Part shown: positions 2,185-18,489 of the stretch, piece after piece | Layout: each line of letters opens with the position of its first letter | Position numbering within the stretch: the first letter of the stretch is position 1 | Assembly (NCBI GenBank): GCA_963845755.1 | Contig: CAWJTV010000041.1 | Coordinates: 96,001-160,000 of the forward strand | DNA length: 64,000 bases | Direction: 5' to 3' | Source of the DNA: an uncultured Planctomycetota bacterium | Lineage (GTDB): Bacteria; Planctomycetota; Planctomycetia; Isosphaerales; Isosphaeraceae | The notes under the pieces: model-generated | What the model saw: the letters and a program-made list of their open reading frames with translations, nothing else | The model's database searches: none | What the model was told of the DNA's origin: nothing | Program-made: the position numbers and the translations under genes

Positions 2185-2235
2185 GATATCCGGATTAGTG
2201 CAAAGTTGTGTGGCGATCCGCCGAGCGGCCTCGAT

Positions 2236-5200
2236 TCATCTCGTCCCGCCCGACGCGGGCGGTGGATTGGCCAGCTCGCGCTTCGAGAGCAGGTACGCGA
2301 TCAGTCGATAGAAATCCTCCTCGGGGATTTGATCGACCAGGTTGGCCGGCATCGGAGACAACTGCGAGGTCTGGCGCTCCTGGACGGTCGACCGGGGTAC
2401 GCGGACCTCCTTTCCCTGGGCGTCGGCCAGGACCAGCACCTCGCCCTCCTCGCGCAGCAGAAGTCCCGAGACGACCTGGCCGTTCTCGAGGGAGAGGTTG
2501 GTGGTCCGGAACGCCTGGTCCACGTTGCGATTCGGGTCGAGGATATCCTCGACGAGGCGGTCGACGCCGCGGCTGCCGATGCCGTCGAGTTGCGGCCCGA
2601 TCCGCGCGCCCTTGCCGCCGACCTGGTGGCAGATCCCGCAGTGTTTCTCGAACACGGGGTTCCCGGGTTCGGGCTGATGGGCCGCCGTGCGGAAGCCGGC
2701 GCGTCGGCGATCGATCAAGCGCGCCGAGCTTCTGGTCGGCGGGAGGGAGACCGGCGAGGAGGGATTTGAGCCGCTCCTGCAACCGCCGGGGTTTCGCCTG
2801 CTGGAGCGCCAGGGCGACGCGCTGATCCTGGAGCAATCTCGCCGAAGCCTTGCCGGCCGCGATCGCATCCAGGAGCGCCTCGGCGCCGGCGCGACTGCGG
2901 GCCAGTCCCACGGCGATCGCGGCCTGGAGCGATCCGGGCGCCAGGGAGACGATCTCGACCAGCAGGCGCGGCGCCTCCGGGCGACCGCTCGCGGCGAAGA
3001 GCCCGGCGGCAGTCTCGCGAAGTTCGATCGGCGCGGCCGGGTCACGCAGCACGTTCGCGACGACCGGACCGTTGTTCGCGGGGTCGATCGCCATCAGGGC
3101 CGTCAGCGCGGAGGAACGTTGTGCCGACGGTGCGGTCATCTTCTCCGCGACGTCCTTGAGTGTCCCCTGGACTTCCTTGAGATGGAGCCCGCTGGCCAGC
3201 TCGATCCCCAGGTTCATGGTCCCGGGGTCGTTCGACCCCAGGAGCGATCGGGCATGCGCGACCGCGAGCTCGTGCATCGCCGCGCCCGGTGGCGCCCCGC
3301 GTTCCTGGAACCCTTGATGCGCCGCCTTGATCAGCTCGGCCTGAACGTGTTGGCCGTGCCGCTCGGCGCGGCCGACCAGCCCGGTCAAGCCGCCGATCTG
3401 GTCGAGTGCCCCGTACCGGGCGATGTGGTGGACGAAGCGGAGCTGGTTCTCCGCCGTCTCGTCCGACTTCTGGAGGTAGGCCAGCAAGTACCCGGCCGCT
3501 TGCGGCGACGGGACGCCCAGCGCGACCTCGGCGATGTCGCGGCGATCGCGTTCGGAGAGCCCGAGCGTCTCCAGTCCGCTCCAGACGTCGGCGGTCTTCA
3601 ACTGGTCCCGCAGCGCCATGCGCGTGACGTGGACGAGATGGGTATCGTCGGCCGGGGTTGTCTGGCGGAGGGCCAGCAGCGGGCGGACGTTCGCCAGGGC
3701 CGGATGCGCCCGAGCACTTCGGCCGCGGCGCGGCGGACGAACGGGTCCGTGTCGTTCAGGGCGTGCAGGGCCAGCCCGTGCGACGGCTCCGGAAGCTCAT
3801 TCCGCTCGATCAACGTCTTGAGGTGATGGACTCTCAACTCGCGATCCGGGTCCGTCGCGGCATTGAGCCAGATGGTCTCGTCAACGGCACCCAGACGCTG
3901 CAACACCCACAATCCGTGTACGCGCTGGCGGGCCGGCGATTCGTGCCTCATGATCGAGCGAATCGCGATCGCGACATCCTCACCCCGTTTCCCATGCTCG
4001 ACGAGCTGGTTGGCCGCCGAGAGCCGCACGCTCAGGTTGGGATGGCCGAGGTCGGCGATCAGGTCGTTGACGGAGGACCTGGTCCGATCGATGGCCGGCG
4101 GGGCAGGGGGCTGCTTGCCGTCGGTTCCCCGGTAGACGATCCGCCAGATTCGGCCGCTGGTGCGATCCCGGCCCGGGTGGGTCAGCGACACTTCATAGTG
4201 TCCGATGATCCGGTTGTAGAAGTCGGCGACGTAGAGCGCACCGTCGGGGCCGAGCTCGATGTTGACGGGACGGAACCAGTTATCCTCGCTCCAGACGAAG
4301 TCGGGCTGCTCGATCCCCTTGGGTGTCGAGCCGTGCCACTCGATCCGGTCGTGGTTAACCCGGTTGGTGACGACGTTGCCGATGAAGACCGTGCCGCGAT
4401 ACGCCTCGGGGAACTGGTCGGCCGCGTAATAGCTGATGCCGGCGATCCCCGTCGAGCCGTGGTCGTGGGTCACCATCTCGGGGCCGAAACCCAGGCCGTC
4501 ATCCGGCTTGCCGAAGCTGGGATACCAGGCGCCCCGGAGGAGCTGATAGACCGGTCGGCTGTGACAATCGCAGGAATAGAGGTTGCCCAGCGGGTCGAAC
4601 GCCAGTCCGAATGGGTTGACCTGCCCGTGGGTGAGGTACTCGGCGTGCGAGCCGTCGGGCCGGATCCGGTAGGTGTTGCCCGAGTTCATGTGGATCGATC
4701 GATGGTCGCTCCCCTGGACGTTCGAGTCGTTCGCATAGCCGTGACAGGCGTAGATCCAGCCATCAAAGCCCCAGGTAAACGCGTTGGTCATCCCGTGTGT
4801 GTCGCGATGGCCGATGATGCCGTAGTGCACCTGGCGCACGTCGGCCCTGCCGTCGCCATCGGTGTCCCGCATCAAGTAAATGTTCGGGATGGTGTGGATG
4901 ATCGCCTCCCGGCCGGACGGATACGGCAAGAGACCGATCGGGATGTTCAGACCGTCGGCGAAGGTCTGGATCTTGCCGGCGCGGCCGTCGGGCCGGAACT
5001 CCGAGAGGATCTTCACCGAGTCGCGGCCGGGTGTCCCTTCCGGCTTCGGGAACGGGTATTCGACGGTATCCGTCACCCAGAGCCGTCCGAGGTCGTCGAA
5101 GGCCAGGTTCAGCGGCTTGTGGATCTCCGGCTCCGGCGGCGACCAGTTGAATCTCGAAGCCCGGCGGGACGTGGAGGGCCTTGCGCTCCTCGTCCGGCGA

Positions 5201-5323
5201 TCGGTGCGGGAACGAGGAGACATTCTCGACCGGAGCCGGTTTCTGGGCGCGGACCAGATCCGGGCCAACGGTAAAAAGTGCCATAACGAGGAGCCCGGGC
5301 AGGTACACGCGCGGAATCGGCAT
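2236..5323 (-). CDS. PVC-type heme-binding CxxCH protein (membrane-bound dehydrogenase-like propeller, HEAT repeats, cytochrome c); about 3 frameshifts
   Basis: Signal peptide, VPPGFEIQLVAA(E)PEIHKPLNLAFDDLGRLWV, WGFDGWIY, NPFGLAFD, FRPVNIELGPDGALYVADFYNRIIGHYE, and C-terminal CGICH..IGPQLDGIGSR..SPMPANL. Confidence 0.9.
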
Positions 5324-5536
5324 CACATCTCTCCAGAAGGTCCTTGTCCCGATCACGGGCGGGATTCGGTATCGTCCAAACCTCTGTTTTAGGGCGTCGC
5401 CTCGTTGCGCTCAAGCCATTGGTGACACGGTTGCTCGCGCTGCGGGTCGCGCTGCGAGGTCCTGCCATTCTGGCATCTTGCCTTGTTCGATCGGACGAGG
5501 TCATTGCGTGCCGTCATCCAACGTCGCCGAGGCTGA

Positions 5537-6493: not shown

Positions 6494-6517
6494 CTACGCT
6501 TGCCAGTCACGGGAGAT
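6494..6517 (-). pseudogene. Possible remnant of the HEPN/DUF86 partner gene start
   Basis: Overlapping the MNT stop, the frame reads ATC-SRDWQA-TAG, resembling the MSRDW.. start of DUF86 toxins with the ATG lost and an early stop. Confidence 0.4.
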
Positions 6518-6800
6518 GGATAAGGTCTCGCTCGACTTCCGCCCGCATCGCGGGTCGGAGCGTATCGGGGGTGCCGAGATCGACCGGGCAGTCCAGCATG
6601 TCCTCCAGGTCGAGCTTCAGACCCATGAAGCGGTCGAAGTCGGCTTTTCCGTCGAAGGTCACGAGGTTGTCGACGTCGCTCCCATCCCGATCGTCGCCCC
6701 GAGCGATCGAGCCGAAGACGGCCAATGATCGGATCCCGTAGGACTGGCGCAGGGCGGGAGCCTCGGCTTTCAGACGGTCGAGGATCGCCTTTCGGTTCAT
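6507..6800 (-). CDS. Minimal nucleotidyltransferase (MNT) family antitoxin
   Basis: 97 aa; LAVFGSIARGDDRDGSDVD (GSx10DxD), LKLDLEDMLDCPVDL, LRPAMRAEVERD. TAGAAT -10-like box at 6845-6850. Confidence 0.9.
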   Translation of the reverse strand: MNRKAILDRLKAEAPALRQSYGIRSLAVFGSIARGDDRDGSDVDNLVTFDGKADFDRFMGLKLDLEDMLDCPVDLGTPDTLRPAMRAEVERDLIHLP

Positions 6801-6921: not shown

Positions 6922-9405
6922 TTATCCTTTTCGCAGAAGCCAGCGTCGGAACAGCGGTGCACGCAGCCGGAAGTTGTCGCCTTCGGTGACAACGAGCAGC
7001 CGGCGCTTCAGCGAGCCGGCCACGGCGTTATCCGCGGGCGGCGGCTGGGTTTCTCGCATCCGAAAACCCTGGAGGTAGTCGAGCTCGCCCGCCATCCGGT
7101 TCTCGCGGATCAGCAACGCGTGAAATACGATGTCCCCTCGGACGACCGCCTCATCGAGCGCCGACTCCCACATCGTGGCGTCGAGCCGATGCTGGCCGGA
7201 TTCGTTGAGCAAGTCAACCACGGTTTCGGCGATCAACTGCACCAGGTGCGGCCACCCGCCCGCCTCGGCGTGGATGCGCTCGATCCCACCGTCGCCCCAG
7301 AAGGCCGGCGAGAAATGAGGCCGTTCGCGATCGCTCAGCCAGAGGGTCGCGTGCTTGAGTGGCTCGGTCAGGAGGAGCCGCGTTTCGTCCTCGGTGAACG
7401 GCGGGACCTCGACCGTTCGCGCGCTGACGAGGTATGAGGTCCACGGGGCGGCGGTCAACTCCTCGATCTCGTGGCTCCCCGCGAGCAGCCAGGTCAGGTT
7501 CCTGTGCGATTGGATCGACTCCTGAATCAGCGCGAGCAGGTCTTCCGAGAAGACCTTCTCACCGATCTTGCGATCGATGTTCTCATACTCGTCGAGCGCC
7601 AGGATCAACCGCCGATTCTTGTTCGCGAGCGCCCGGTTGCAGTCTGCAAGGAGCCACTCCAGCCCCCGCAGGTCGCCCGGAGGATCGTCCTCCAGTTCAC
7701 ATGCCTTCTGCAGCCGCGTCCCTACCAGTTCGCAGAACGATTGGAGCGAAGTGAACGCCTTCGCTTCCTGCATCGAGATCACGACCACGCGAACGCTGCT
7801 CGGGAGGAACCCGCTCAGATTCTTGAGCACAGTTGACTTGCCCATCCGCCTGCGTCCGTAGAACACGACACCGGGACAATCGGTCGCGAGCATGACATGC
7901 CGCTCCAGTCGGCCGAAAACCCGATCCCGAGGAACGAAAGCCTCCCGATTTCGATCGACGGGCAAGCCCGCGTGGAAGACCTGGACCGTCAGCTCACGGC
8001 TTGCGATGCGACGAATCTCGTCCCGCTGTCGCTCTGCGATGACTCGCCACCGCTCGGCTGCCGCCAGGAACTCGGAGGCGAGCGGTTCTTGAAGTTTGGC
8101 GACTCGATGGCGGAAGTTCTCCACGGCCGTGCACAAGGCTTGCGCATAGGTCTCGCGAAAAACCGGACGGTCCATCGCGTTCAATCGCGTCTGCAACAGC
8201 GCGATCTCGCCGGCCATCCTGCGGACGTCCTCGGTTTCTGCCAGGAACCCCTTTTCTCCCTCCGGGAGACTCGCCACGATCTCGCCGAGGCGTATCAAGT
8301 CGGAGGCCCGTCCCGCCTCGCGGGCCAGGAGCCGCGCCCGCGCGCGCAAGGCGGGCGTCCGCTGGCTCGGGTAGTGGTCGATCAGTCGCTCGATCTCCAC
8401 GATCCCCGCGGAGGGCTCCTGTTCCGCGTAGGCCGCGAGAAGATGGTCCAGGTCTCGGAACGGGACCGAGCAGCAGTCGTCCCAGGCCACAGGGTGGAAG
8501 GGATACCAGTTGAACCGCGCCTTCGGCCAGATGAAGAGCAGACTGACCAGATTGTAGTAGTAACGTAGGACAGCGATCACGACGACGGTCCCGACAGCGA
8601 TCCCGATACCTATGCCGACACCTATCCCGATCGCTATCCCGATGGCGATCCCGACGATGATGCCGACGGCGATCCCGATGGCTATGCCCAACGTGATCCC
8701 GAACGTGATCCCGAACGCGATCTCTCCGGCGCCCTCGAAATTGACGCCGAAGGCGATCCCGAACGGGACACCGAAGGCAATGCCGAAGGCGATCCCGAAG
8801 GCGATCCCGAACGGGACACCGAAGGCGATCCCGAAGGCGATCCCGAATGGGACGCCGAAGGTGATCCCGAAGGCGATCCCAATGGTGATCCCGATGGCGA
8901 ACCCATCGGCGATCCCGATGACAATCCCGAAGGCGATCCCGATGGCGACTCCGATGGTAACTCCGACAGCGAACCCATCGGCGATCCCGACGGCGACCCC
9001 GATCGTGATCCCGAAGGTGACCCCGAAAGTGATGCCATCCGCGCTTCCGATGCCAATCCCGACCCCGATCCCGATGGCGATCCCGATCCCGATCCCAATA
9101 GCCATTCCGACGGCAATCCCGACGCCGTGGGAAAGGAGGGACGCTGTAAGGGTTATGGTGGTTTTTTCGGCCGAAAGGCCGAGTGCCCCGAACAGCAGGC
9201 CGCGACCGAGGACGCAGGTGAGAGCGACGAGAGGCAATGCATGGGCCACCAGCCGCAAGCCGGCTTCGATTTGTTGTGACGTCGCGCCGGTCTGAAGGGC
9301 TTCGTAGAATCGCTTGGGCTTTCGATAGAGCAAAGCGAGCCACCACAGGGCGTGCTTTTGGTCGCTCCAGCGGAGCCGGATCTCGTGCAACGGCCTGGGT
9401 ATCAT
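6922..9405 (-). CDS. Membrane-anchored STAND/AAA-like ATPase (827 aa) with N-terminal Gly-zipper repeat region
   Basis: Start ATG 9405 overlaps the upstream stop (ATGA). Motifs: FHAGLPV..FVPRD, Walker A GRRRMGKST, Walker B LILALDEYE, GGWPHLVQL, C-terminal wHTH-like LKRRLLV..FRLRAPLFRRWL. Confidence 0.85.
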   Translation of the reverse strand: MIPRPLHEIRLRWSDQKHALWWLALLYRKPKRFYEALQTGATSQQIEAGLRLVAHALPLVALTCVLGRGLLFGALGLSAEKTTITLTASLLSHGVGIAVGMAIGIGIGIAIGIGVGIGIGSADGITFGVTFGITIGVAVGIADGFAVGVTIGVAIGIAFGIVIGIADGFAIGITIGIAFGITFGVPFGIAFGIAFGVPFGIAFGIAFGIAFGVPFGIAFGVNFEGAGEIAFGITFGITLGIAIGIAVGIIVGIAIGIAIGIGVGIGIGIAVGTVVVIAVLRYYYNLVSLLFIWPKARFNWYPFHPVAWDDCCSVPFRDLDHLLAAYAEQEPSAGIVEIERLIDHYPSQRTPALRARARLLAREAGRASDLIRLGEIVASLPEGEKGFLAETEDVRRMAGEIALLQTRLNAMDRPVFRETYAQALCTAVENFRHRVAKLQEPLASEFLAAAERWRVIAERQRDEIRRIASRELTVQVFHAGLPVDRNREAFVPRDRVFGRLERHVMLATDCPGVVFYGRRRMGKSTVLKNLSGFLPSSVRVVVISMQEAKAFTSLQSFCELVGTRLQKACELEDDPPGDLRGLEWLLADCNRALANKNRRLILALDEYENIDRKIGEKVFSEDLLALIQESIQSHRNLTWLLAGSHEIEELTAAPWTSYLVSARTVEVPPFTEDETRLLLTEPLKHATLWLSDRERPHFSPAFWGDGGIERIHAEAGGWPHLVQLIAETVVDLLNESGQHRLDATMWESALDEAVVRGDIVFHALLIRENRMAGELDYLQGFRMRETQPPPADNAVAGSLKRRLLVVTEGDNFRLRAPLFRRWLLRKG
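8590..9125 (-). repeat. Intragenic degenerate 12 bp tandem repeat (GGGATCGCCTTC-like) encoding G-I-A-F tetrapeptides
   Basis: Roughly 45 GxxxG units; produces low-complexity shadow ORFs in the other frames. Confidence 0.9.
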
Positions 9406-10321
9406 GGCCGGCCCTTGAGTTCCACAGATTTTATGGTGATCGTCGACATGGGGTGGTTCTGCGGCAGGAGGCTCGTCAAGGGGGTCCGTGATTGGATCAG
9501 CAGGATGAGCTTGCGGTCTTCCATCAGGTCGCGGAGGGCCACGAATAGGTCGACTTCGTAATCGTCCAGTCGGTGGCTCACGTGGTCGAACGAGGTGAGG
9601 GCGAGACGCGGAGCCCGCGGCAAGGCTTTGAGAGCATGACCTAGCTCGACCAGATCCTTCGGCTTGTCTGGAACCCGGCCATGTCGCCGGCAACCACATT
9701 GCTTCAAGATCTCCTGGACCAGTGAGGGGCGAGACATCGCCTCGGTCGAGTCGAGCTTCACGACGCCCAGGCCGAGCGCGGGGTTGTGGCGGAGGTGATC
9801 GAGGAGCGGGCGCCAGCGGGCCTGGCCCATCACGACCAGGTTGACCGACTCGCCCCGATCGAGCTGAACCTGGACCTGGTCGTGGGCGCGGAGCCATTCG
9901 GCGCGGCGGAACCGAGGTCGAGCTTGCAGGTCTTCAGCAACAAGTCCCAGGGATCGGGCTTGCCATCGTCGCGCAGGTCCACGTAGAGCGGGTCGGGGCG
10001 CTTGATGGCCGGTGGCAATTTGCAATCGATTCGCAGGACGGGGATCGTGACTCCCCTTTCGAACTTGGGATCGCGGGCGATCGCCCGTTTCATCTCGTGC
10101 TGGCAGGGCTTGCTCGCCAGATACTCGGGTGATAGCACAAGGACGTTCAGCTCGGCACGGTCCTGGACATCGTCCATCTGCCGATAAACGGCTCGCGCCG
10201 CCTCGAACTGCTCACGGTCAATCAGCATCTCGGCGCCGGCAGCCCTCAATACGGGCACCAGGCGCTCCCACACCCATTCGCTCTGATGACGGCTATAACT
10301 GACGAAAACGGATGGGGTCAC
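9402..10321 (-). CDS. TIR domain fused to a degenerate (inactive) STAND NTPase domain; one frameshift near 9900, about 306 aa when joined
   Basis: VFVSYSR..LIDREQF..VLVLSPEYLASKPCQHEM (TIR with Glu) in one ORF; GESVNLVV..RLALTSFDHV..FVALRDL..LILLIQSRTPL in the next. GGAG RBS before GTG 10321. Confidence 0.8.
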
Positions 10322-10421
10322 GAGTGATCGCTCCGAGGTCGCCAGGTCGCGAGGAGGCATCAGTCCATGAATGCCGAGAGACTCCTGAGATCATAACCCT
10401 CCTCGCCGATCGAGAGAAGGG

Positions 10422-11015
10422 TCACTCCCTCCGGATCACGCGCCGGGCAATGACAGCCTCGAGCCAGGCCGTGCGTTCTTCCTCGGTCGCCGCGAACGGG
10501 GACCATTCCTCGCGGATGAGCGGCACGTCGATCGTGTCGCGATTGGCGGTGAGCAGGGTTTCGATATCGACCTGGTCCTGGGGTCGGAAGGCGACCATCT
10601 TGGTCAGGATCAGCCCCTCGGCCGTGGCCACCCGGACGGTGTGGCTCTCCGTCCATTCCAGGGGGGCGGCGGCGTCGAGCGTTCGGGAGTAGAGGGGGAG
10701 GACCGGCTTGAGCCAGTCGATGCGAACATGGCCGAACGAGAACGACGTCATATACTCCCGGACGTATTGCTTGATGACGAGAGCCGGGTCGAGGGCGAAA
10801 CCTCGTTGGACGAGGTCATCCAGCAGCCCGGGCAAGACGATCTGCGGGACGTCGAGGAGGAAGTCGGCATCCTGAGTGAACCGGGGACGGCCGCGCAGCA
10901 CGAATGCCAGTCCGCCGATGAGCGCGTAGCGGATCGAGCGGGCGTCGAACGCCTCGGCCAAGGATCCGACGGCCCGCACGGCATCGTCGGGCAAGAGATG
11001 GGAGTCAGCGCGCAT
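10422..11015 (-). CDS. Nucleotidyltransferase, AbiEii/AbiGii-like toxin family
   Basis: YALIGGLA..RFTQDADF and EGLILTKMVAFRPQDQVDI motifs. Confidence 0.8.
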   Translation of the reverse strand: MRADSHLLPDDAVRAVGSLAEAFDARSIRYALIGGLAFVLRGRPRFTQDADFLLDVPQIVLPGLLDDLVQRGFALDPALVIKQYVREYMTSFSFGHVRIDWLKPVLPLYSRTLDAAAPLEWTESHTVRVATAEGLILTKMVAFRPQDQVDIETLLTANRDTIDVPLIREEWSPFAATEEERTAWLEAVIARRVIRRE

Positions 11016-11238
11016 GACGTGCGATGAACTCCTGGATGTTCCGTTGCGCCAGAAGCTTCTGCTCTTCCGAATACTGCTTCGCCCAAGCCGCCTTCGGCGA
11101 GATGCTCATCAAGCGCATACCGGTGGCCATCATGCCTCGAATCGTTTGGATGCGCTCCTCCGGCGTGAGTGCCCGGAAGCTGGCGACATCTTCGAGGATC
11201 ACGTCGGTCTCACTGGGGAACTTGATGGGGAGGTCCAT
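11005..11238 (-). CDS. Small helical protein, probable partner/antitoxin of the downstream nucleotidyltransferase
   Basis: 77 aa, FRALTPEERI motif, GGAG RBS, overlaps the NTase start. Confidence 0.65.
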   Translation of the reverse strand: MDLPIKFPSETDVILEDVASFRALTPEERIQTIRGMMATGMRLMSISPKAAWAKQYSEEQKLLAQRNIQEFIARHAR

Positions 11239-16533: not shown

Positions 16534-17582
<1,049 letters not shown>

Positions 17583-18489
17583 CGCGATCGCGCAGATCTC
17601 GGACCTGACCCTGCGCTCGCGGCGGCTCGTCGAGGGGGCGATCAGCGGCCAGCATCGCAGCCCGTTCCACGGCTTCAACATCGAGTTCGCCGAGTACCGC
17701 GACTACACGCCGGGCGACGACCTCCGCCGCCTGGACTGGCGCGTCTTCGCCCGCTCGGATCGCCATTACATCAAGCAATACGAAGAAGAGAGCAACGTCC
17801 GGGTCACGTTCGTCGTCGACGCCAGCGCCGTCGATGAATTATCGCGGCTCGGCGCCGCTGTCGAAGTTCGACTACGCGGGCACCCTGGTCGTTTCCCTGG
17901 CGATGCTCCTGACCCGCCAGCAGGACCCGGTGGGCCTGGTCCTGTTCGACGAGGCGGCCAGGACCGTCCTGCCCCCCGCCGCGACCCAGACGCAGGTCAT
18001 CGTGATGGCCGGCCTGCTCGAACGTTGCACGCCCGACCCGGAAGACCGAGCTGGGCGGCCTGCTCCACTCGCTCACCGGCCAGTTGCGGCGCCGGAGCCT
18101 GCTGGTCATCGTCTCGGACCTCTTGACCGACCTGGACGCCGTCTACGACAGCCTGAACCGCCTCCGATTCCACGGCCATGAAGTCCTCATGATGCAGGTG
18201 CTCGACCGCGACGAGCTGGAATTGCCCTTCGACGGGCCGACGATCTTCCGCGACATCGAAGGCGAGGAAGAACTGTTCGCCGAGCCCTGGGCGTTCCGCC
18301 GGTCGTATCAGCAGGCCATGCAGGATTTCCTGGAGGGCGTCCGGCGCGAATGCGGCAACCGCGGCTACGATCACGTGCGGTTCCTGACCGATGAGCCGCT
18401 CGGCGACTCGCTCAGCCTGTTCCTGCACTCCCGAGAGGAAATGGGGCGGAGTTCGCGGTAGGGGCGGACTTCCTTGGGCGATGGGAGCT

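Follow-up and report, generated by a model that had tools for sequence, protein, structure and literature searches.

A candidate two-gene split NLR-like cassette pairing a TIR–inactive STAND protein with a putative membrane STAND ATPase

Gene organization of the locus

We analyzed a two-gene cassette within a 64,000-nucleotide stretch of DNA (hereafter, the window; positions 96,001 to 160,000 of contig CAWJTV010000041.1, assembly GCA_963845755.1) from an uncultured Planctomycetota bacterium of the family Isosphaeraceae. On the minus strand, a TIR_2 domain extends to position 9899 and is followed, in another frame, by a second domain reaching 9402, after which an open reading frame (ORF) of 827 amino acids runs from 9405 to 6922 (Table 1). 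The TIR and the second domain make up gene 1 and the long ORF is gene 2; the cassette is present once in the source genome. A first-pass annotation, made from the sequence alone, had described a TIR domain with a conserved glutamate (CQHEM), joined across an indel near 9900 to a domain with a lost Walker A (GESVNLVVMGQARW) and an eroded Walker B (LALTSFD), and an ATGA overlap with an 827-residue protein carrying a transmembrane/Gly-zipper region, a helical linker, Walker A and B motifs, a GxP motif, and a winged helix-turn-helix (wHTH)-like end. All of these features were recovered, with both degenerate motifs in the second domain and the ATGA at 9405–9402.

The TIR_2 match spans 10321–9899. 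Its catalytic glutamate is retained in 85 of the 89 aligned relatives with a residue at this site and is replaced by glutamine in the other four; as in enzymatic TIR domains, the predicted activity is cleavage of NAD+ or synthesis of a signal. Translation of gene 1 may begin at ATG 10360 rather than GTG 10321, because two relatives (P0007 and P0008) have a similar N-terminal extension. Two separate genes for the TIR and the second domain are ruled out: each of the 27 longer homologues of the latter, mostly 305–325 amino acids long, carries TIR_2, and 66 of 68 related junctions read through in a single open frame.

In the window, the two frames share a single base, 9899, and gene 1 is left one base short. 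This break is most likely an assembly error, because relatives are intact and essential genes of the same 14.3-Mb assembly are also frameshifted (rpoB, rpoC, and one of two secA copies; ileS is whole). A genuine frameshift, which would make the source copy a pseudogene, is very unlikely: no listed read piece spans 9899 and related loci L007, L008, L045, L086, and L088 are broken, but the essential genes share the defect and the motifs on either side of 9899 are all intact. Pseudogene status of this one copy would not affect the conclusion at the family level. Public short-read pieces match the window almost exactly, and no RNA dataset with matching sequence was found among the listed read sets. 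Elsewhere in the window, large genes at 2195–5356 (minus strand) and 16538–18461 (plus strand) are broken over several frames, in agreement with frequent indels in the assembly; we take them to be heme-binding dehydrogenase-like and MoxR, DUF58-like, respectively.

The second domain of gene 1 is, judged from its predicted structure, an inactive STAND/AAA+ core. Its fold was taken from an AlphaFold2 model of the intact relative P0004, which is 84% identical in this domain (25-row alignment; predicted local distance difference test [pLDDT] 88.7, predicted template modeling score 0.86) and consists of a TIR followed by a five-stranded core. Structure comparison of this model gave Cdc6/Orc1 (2qby) as the best match of the core (Z 15.4, root-mean-square deviation [rmsd] 2.6, 158 residues aligned), with ORC subunits, TnsC, and the archaeal STANDs 2qen and 2fna also matching (Z 12–15), which bears out the P-loop fold expected of the TIR partner. 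Across 101 aligned relatives, Walker A is absent from every one, other residues take the place of the Walker B acids (x-H-F-D), and the Arg-finger position varies, with Lys in 30 and Arg in 8. In the modeled relative the domain ends after strand 5, lacking both the helical lid and the wHTH. No Pfam model covers the window copy or the 101 relatives, and the family comprises 243 clusters at 50% identity. The profile of the inactive domain, compared with its own partner ATPase only, aligned weakly (P 54%, E 1.2e-4; in a second comparison, P 14%, E 0.002), which would fit an old duplicate of that partner.

By motifs and predicted fold, gene 2 is an active-type, MNS-like STAND NTPase with Walker A GRRRMGKS, Walker B LALDE, a GWP motif, and a wHTH end. 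K523, D605, and E606 occur in all 95 relatives, and the Arg finger R663 occurs in 93 of them. Over residues 474–825 of the gene 2 model (95-row alignment, pLDDT 85.4), the best fold is 2qen (PAB2304; Z 22.0, rmsd 3.9, 309 residues aligned), followed by 2fna (SSO1545; Z 20.9), both of which we take to be of the MNS type, as reportedly assigned by Leipe et al. 2004. The protein ends at the wHTH, without a C-terminal sensor domain. Two relatives (P0183 and P0185) carry the active ATPase module tandemly duplicated, without the membrane part.

The regions of gene 2 have diverged at markedly different rates. Among the 95 relatives, mean identity is 0.61 in the ATPase module, 0.53 in the linker (190–196 amino acids, pLDDT mostly >90), and 0.31 in the hydrophobic array, whose length ranges from 40 to 237 amino acids. 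The array DNA has a Tandem Repeats Finder period of 12 with 46.3 copies at 8569–9124, and glycines are spaced four residues apart in 36 of 50 intervals. Pairs of relatives that are 85–94% identical in linker plus ATPase are only 0.19–0.74 identical in the array, so that fast change appears limited to the membrane array, as would be expected of a sensor. Hydropathy suggests a membrane location for the protein, and the ATGA overlap suggests translational coupling of the two genes.

Table 1. Coordinates of the cassette and its immediate neighbors in the window
Feature	Position	Strand	Basis
Gene 1, 5′ part: TIR_2 domain with catalytic Glu	9899..10360	-	Pfam TIR_2, E 7.8e-20; start ATG 10360 or GTG 10321
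One-base frameshift between TIR and inactive STAND	9899..9899	-	Frame overlap; relatives in frame; other broken genes in assembly
Gene 1, 3′ part: inactive STAND/AAA+ alpha/beta core, 165 aa	9402..9899	-	Fold match; eroded motifs; no Pfam model
ATGA stop/start overlap	9402..9405	-	Sequence; start-type codon over TGA stop in 59/67 related loci
Gene 2, residues 1–62: moderately conserved N-terminal helices	9220..9405	-	Mean pairwise identity 0.42; pLDDT ~90
Gene 2, residues 63–279: hydrophobic G-x-x-x repeat array, hypervariable	8569..9219	-	12-bp tandem repeat
Gene 2, residues 280–472: conserved all-helical linker of fixed length	7990..8568	-	Identity; pLDDT
Gene 2, residues 473–827: active MNS-type STAND ATPase (nucleotide-binding domain, helical domain with GWP, wHTH)	6922..7989	-	Fold; motifs
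Outside cassette, upstream: DUF6036/AbiEii-like nucleotidyltransferase	10422..11015	-	Pfam; not recurrent at related loci
Outside cassette, downstream: minimal nucleotidyltransferase	6507..6800	-	NTP_transf_2, E 8.4e-11; PDC-S09, E 2.6e-26

Conservation of the gene pair and exchange of its output domain

Scans yielded 8 genome loci, 79 metagenome loci (from the best 80 of 195 confirmed stretches), and 6 handle loci. After removal of the window's own locus and three duplicates, 89 loci remained, of which 12 end too close to the cassette to be judged. The gene for the inactive STAND lies directly upstream of the ATPase gene in 74 of the 77 informative loci, a set that includes near-duplicates and close kin and does not represent independent events. 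The three unpaired loci are all damaged (L007 by an internal deletion, L086 by 5′ truncation, and L088 by a frameshift with an inverted fragment). The co-conservation of the two genes foreseen from the window thus holds, and chance adjacency is ruled out by this linkage. The two genes are separate ORFs in 73 of the 74 linked loci. Divergence of the inactive domain correlates with that of the ATPase (rho 0.53 in 48 loci, versus 0.54 for linker and ATPase); we discounted this as evidence of co-evolution, since linkage alone predicts it.

The output domain of the upstream gene is predominantly TIR, and it is exchangeable. Among the linked loci it is TIR in 66, a cyclase in one, and HTH in one, with six cut by contig ends. 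We also scanned 117 proteins with the inactive domain (115 of the best 150, short fragments omitted, plus 2 more), in which TIR_2 was found 87 times, another domain without TIR 11 times, and no Pfam hit 19 times; most of the last group that were inspected are truncated or degenerate TIRs. The 11 TIR-less proteins comprise four with XRE-HTH and one each with a class III cyclase, trypsin, an alpha/beta hydrolase, a weak Lon_C, DUF4145, EAD1, and a C-terminal AAA_21. Effector swapping on the inactive STAND, suggested earlier for the locus, is therefore seen among its relatives, with HTH, cyclase, HEPN-like, EAD1, and trypsin domains among the replacements, and the N-terminal swaps appear to come from the usual conflict-system set (cf. 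PMC7159879, PMC8195603). In the AAA_21 case (P0117), the inactive STAND lies N-terminal to an ABC-type ATPase, a different partner.

Natural single-chain fusions of both proteins exist, each as a singleton: P0100 retains the membrane part, and P0177 and P0314 are without it. Two loci (L004, 1423–3453; L036, 4050–5944) have two tandem, divergent TIR–inactive STAND genes before one ATPase gene. At L075 (578–2849), the inactive-STAND gene is followed by an ATPase gene that starts with a second TIR instead of the membrane region, and a DarT-macro gene comes after it.

Predicted complex of the two proteins

We predicted the complex between the window's inactive domain and ATPase residues 279–827, alongside three control proteins. 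The pair scored 0.73 (runs 0.77, 0.73, and 0.69), and the best control scored 0.00; of 157 solved complexes, 116 reach the score mark, compared with 2 of 215 mismatches. At least 84% of contacts are shared between runs, and the partner pLDDT is at least 81. In the model, residues 116–129 and 140–160 of the inactive domain face the Walker A, Walker B, sensor-1, and lid residues of the ATPase, a predicted contact corresponding to the usual head-to-tail AAA+ arrangement over the nucleotide pocket. On the opposite face, outside the predicted interface, W29, R57, H103, D105, R110, and R138 of the inactive domain are conserved, which suggests a second partner or ligand.

Distribution and genomic neighborhood

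The cassette was found in none of 400 phylum genomes, in 3 of 120 family genomes, and in none of 400 in a second phylum sample. Named relatives nevertheless span Acidobacteria, Alphaproteobacteria, Accumulibacter, Competibacter, Poribacteria, Verrucomicrobia, and KSB1. Searches of viral contigs found no cassette, and those of plasmids found none, with one weak 22% match; viral or plasmid carriage is thus not supported.

No candidate for a third component emerged, as no gene recurs across unrelated loci. The largest flank clusters reflect either insertion sites that related organisms share or widespread families, kinases among them. On five related contigs (L024, L031, L036, L046, and L048), the cassette occupies the same site beside a DivIC/FtsB gene, with differing small genes inserted. 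Elsewhere, a long nSTAND1-WD40 gene (L072, 9364–14025, minus strand) and a TRAF-binding/TPR-S gene (L039, from 8572, plus strand) adjoin the cassette.

In the window itself, a small ORF without a Pfam hit overlaps the upstream nucleotidyltransferase gene (10422–11235, minus strand), and the two look like a toxin-antitoxin-type pair. Just past the downstream nucleotidyltransferase, its usual HEPN partner seems, to judge by resemblance, to have shrunk to a few codons ahead of a stop. Repeated short motifs at 1598–2311 produce several spurious ORFs that encode the same peptides on the two strands and are likely an intergenic palindromic repeat array.

Proposed mechanism and alternatives

We propose, with a probability of slightly under one half, that the two genes form a self-contained cassette acting as a split nucleotide-binding leucine-rich repeat receptor (NLR), in which the membrane STAND would oligomerize with ATP and thereby cluster and activate the TIR. 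The large protein would be held in the inner membrane by its Gly-repeat array, with the ATP switch in the cytoplasm, and the small protein would serve as an effector adaptor, presenting TIR or another swappable output on a cut-down inactive STAND core; this core would still bind the active ATPase head-to-tail, at its nucleotide pocket. ATP-dependent oligomerization would be driven by a trigger at the level of the membrane, perceived by either the variable array or the adjoining helical linker; the oligomer would then recruit the TIR–inactive STAND protein through its retained interface, and clustering of the TIRs would switch on NAD+ cleavage. Clustering of TIR domains by STAND oligomers is established for Avs and plant TIR-type NLRs. 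Direct NAD+ depletion seems likelier than signal production, because no receptor gene is linked. Co-assembly of an ATPase with an inactive adaptor, as put forward in the first-pass annotation, is supported by effector swaps, natural fusions, and the predicted heterodimer.

A defense or conflict role of some kind is likely, and this role is probably anti-phage and abortive; the patchy spread and conflict-type neighbors are indirect signs of it. A more elaborate form of the proposal, which we regard as doubtful, would reverse the layout of an NLR-like receptor: an N-terminal, rapidly re-scrambled Gly-tetrad array would read foreign membrane proteins or damage within the membrane, and a swappable enzyme on a half-AAA+ pseudo-subunit would plug into the ATP site.

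Several observations weigh against the proposed split receptor. Gene 2 has no recognizable sensor domain, and the variability of its array may reflect neutral slippage, or assembly collapse in short-read relatives, because the array is low-complexity tandem DNA. Versions without the membrane part exist (P0177, P0314, L004, and L075), although these are singletons and may be decay products. Replacement of TIR by HTH or cyclase also fits plain signaling. The toxin-antitoxin, DarT, STAND, or nuclease-fold neighbors at ~14 of the 77 informative loci favor the proposal, but this count covers one ORF per side and a few hand-picked genes and stands without a background rate. The GC content of the cassette equals that of its flanks (mean difference -0.007, 38 loci). 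Regarding the predicted complex, interface residues show no higher conservation than other positions (0.50 versus 0.49; 0.77 versus 0.71), the control proteins were unrelated and not AAA+ domains, and an AAA+ pair can reach the mark because it resembles solved ORC/Cdc6 or TnsC rings. The inactive domain could also cap a ring as easily as extend it, because it has neither a conserved Arg at the finger position nor a lid.

The polarity of signaling could be the opposite: the inactive STAND would sense a nucleic acid or nucleotide, the TIR would signal or relay, and the Gly-zipper array would form a killing pore upon oligomerization. Gly zippers are known in pore-forming proteins, and the conserved residues facing away from the predicted interface would suit such a ligand. 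Inactive STANDs have moreover been proposed as nucleic-acid receptors (Kaur et al. 2021, PMC8195603). We nonetheless consider this arrangement unlikely, as an array varying from 40 to 237 amino acids and strongly different between close relatives would be odd for a pore, unrelated outputs replace the TIR, and the mean net charge of the inactive domain is only +1.8.

The dependence of the TIR on its partner could also be one of restraint, with the ATPase holding the TIR–inactive STAND protein in a 1:1 guard or toxin-antitoxin complex in which the inactive subunit caps the ATP site, until damage to or loss of the membrane protein frees the TIR to self-assemble. The overlapping stop and start codons, suggestive of matched amounts, the modeled placement of a domain without an Arg finger over the ATP pocket, and the toxin-antitoxin genes common among neighbors are all compatible with this arrangement. 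However, the effector gene precedes its partner, the ATPase retains an Arg finger along with a highly conserved trans face that fits a homo-oligomer, and fused forms would not free the TIR; release from a guard likewise strikes us as unlikely.

A role outside defense, in envelope-stress or developmental signaling with second-messenger or transcription outputs under the control of the membrane STAND, appears improbable. The XRE-HTH (4/117) and class III cyclase (1/117) replacements point in this direction, as do the many loci lying amid housekeeping genes and the 391 of 589 prokaryotic STAND clades that were not classed as defense-associated (Lee et al. 2026, PMC13581612). Yet the distribution is very patchy, no receptor or target gene is linked, and TIR dominates (87/117).

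With only two genes, the pair is a minimal system for testing whether inactive STANDs act as adaptor, cap, or sensor, a question that comparative genomics has raised, and it points to possible intramembrane sensing through a variable Gly-repeat array. To our knowledge, every bacterial STAND receptor characterized to date is a single chain whose repeat sensor is cytoplasmic. Intact natural copies occur in many genomes, making the system directly testable in a laboratory strain.

Comparison with known systems

Model libraries and the literature searched returned no named system for this pair, which the first-pass annotation had not recognized as one either. No model in Pfam, NCBIfam, or PADLOC (2023 release) names the cassette, and the NCBIfam and PADLOC matches are partial and mostly to TIR. 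A sequence search against solved structures returned nothing significant. Thoeris, CBASS, and Pycsar models gave only partial TIR matches far below cut-off, and no third gene (ThsA-type effector or cyclase) is conserved alongside the pair. No description of the pair was found in the openly accessible literature searched. Nothing matching was found in the accessible part of a ParA preprint (10.64898/2026.10.19.760177), and the supplements searched, a set exclusive of the large clade tables and file 7 of Lee et al. 2026 and of file 13 of Kaur et al. 2021, did not contain the accessions of two named relatives. The ATPase may therefore sit unnamed in a STAND clade of either study.

The closest parallel is nSTAND2, a mobile two-gene operon in which one STAND is active and the other, which bears a variable effector, is inactive; a hetero-oligomer was proposed for it, and its source data label the family MNS-like (Kaur et al. 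2021, PMC8195603). Adjacent active and inactive STAND genes and a variable effector on the inactive partner are common to both, so that the split-receptor logic is not without precedent. In nSTAND2, however, the inactive partner lies downstream and is full length, comprising a wHTH, TPRs, and a C-terminal HEPN or GT4, and the Arg finger is present in both partners. Here the inactive STAND is instead upstream and cut to its core, it has its TIR at the N-terminus and lacks a conserved finger, and a membrane array is found in the active partner. The nSTAND2 model PF20702 matched neither the window proteins nor the 101 relatives, and gave no match in five cassette-bearing genomes in a search run without a positive control. 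The nSTAND6 model (PF25201) was rejected as an assignment, matching 2 of 101 relatives weakly, below cut-off, and not at the cassette in the five genomes.

A second parallel lies in the iSTAND/iSTAND2 MoxR-vWA ternary systems, whose short inactive STANDs carry an N-terminal TIR, trypsin, EAD, or cyclase as in the present family (PMC7159879, PMC8195603), and in which TIR-iSTAND proteins are tied to MoxR-vWA operons (Kaur et al. 2020, PMC7159879). Here, by contrast, the partner is an active membrane STAND. No MoxR or vWA gene was found among the cassette neighbors, which include no recurrent flanking family, and PF19995 (iSTAND) had no match at the cassette in the window, relatives, or genomes examined.

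In Avs-like receptors, effector, STAND, and sensor follow one another in a single chain, the C-terminal sensor being a large TPR, WD40, or FGE region, and STANDs have been surveyed by C-terminal sensors of at least 400 amino acids (Lee et al. 2026, PMC13581612). The cassette shares with Avs/AVAST the STAND switch of nucleotide-binding domain, helical domain, and wHTH and a TIR-type effector, and differs in that its ATPase ends at the wHTH and its effector resides on a second, inactive subunit; Avs models did not match the window proteins. PAB2304 and SSO1545 of the MNS clade, the best structural matches over the whole ATPase module, differ in being soluble single modules in their solved forms, and Atlas neighbors of the ATPase are cyanobacterial and chloroflexal AAA_22/ATPase_2/AAA_35 proteins. 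The cyanobacterial Npun2340/2341 family is grouped with this clade, and Npun2340 and Npun2341 reportedly form adjacent gene pairs. By analogy only, ORC/Cdc6 and paired NLRs (NAIP-NLRC4, plant sensor/helper pairs) likewise bring together related AAA+/STAND subunits that differ in activity into hetero-oligomers; unlike in these, the inactive subunit here carries the effector and has lost its lid and wHTH.

Collectively, the cassette resembles the nSTAND2 pair in outline and is not a member of nSTAND2, the ternary systems, or Avs. It constitutes a tightly conserved, unnamed module that varies the known theme of paired active and inactive STANDs by an unusual variable membrane array and a minimal inactive subunit.

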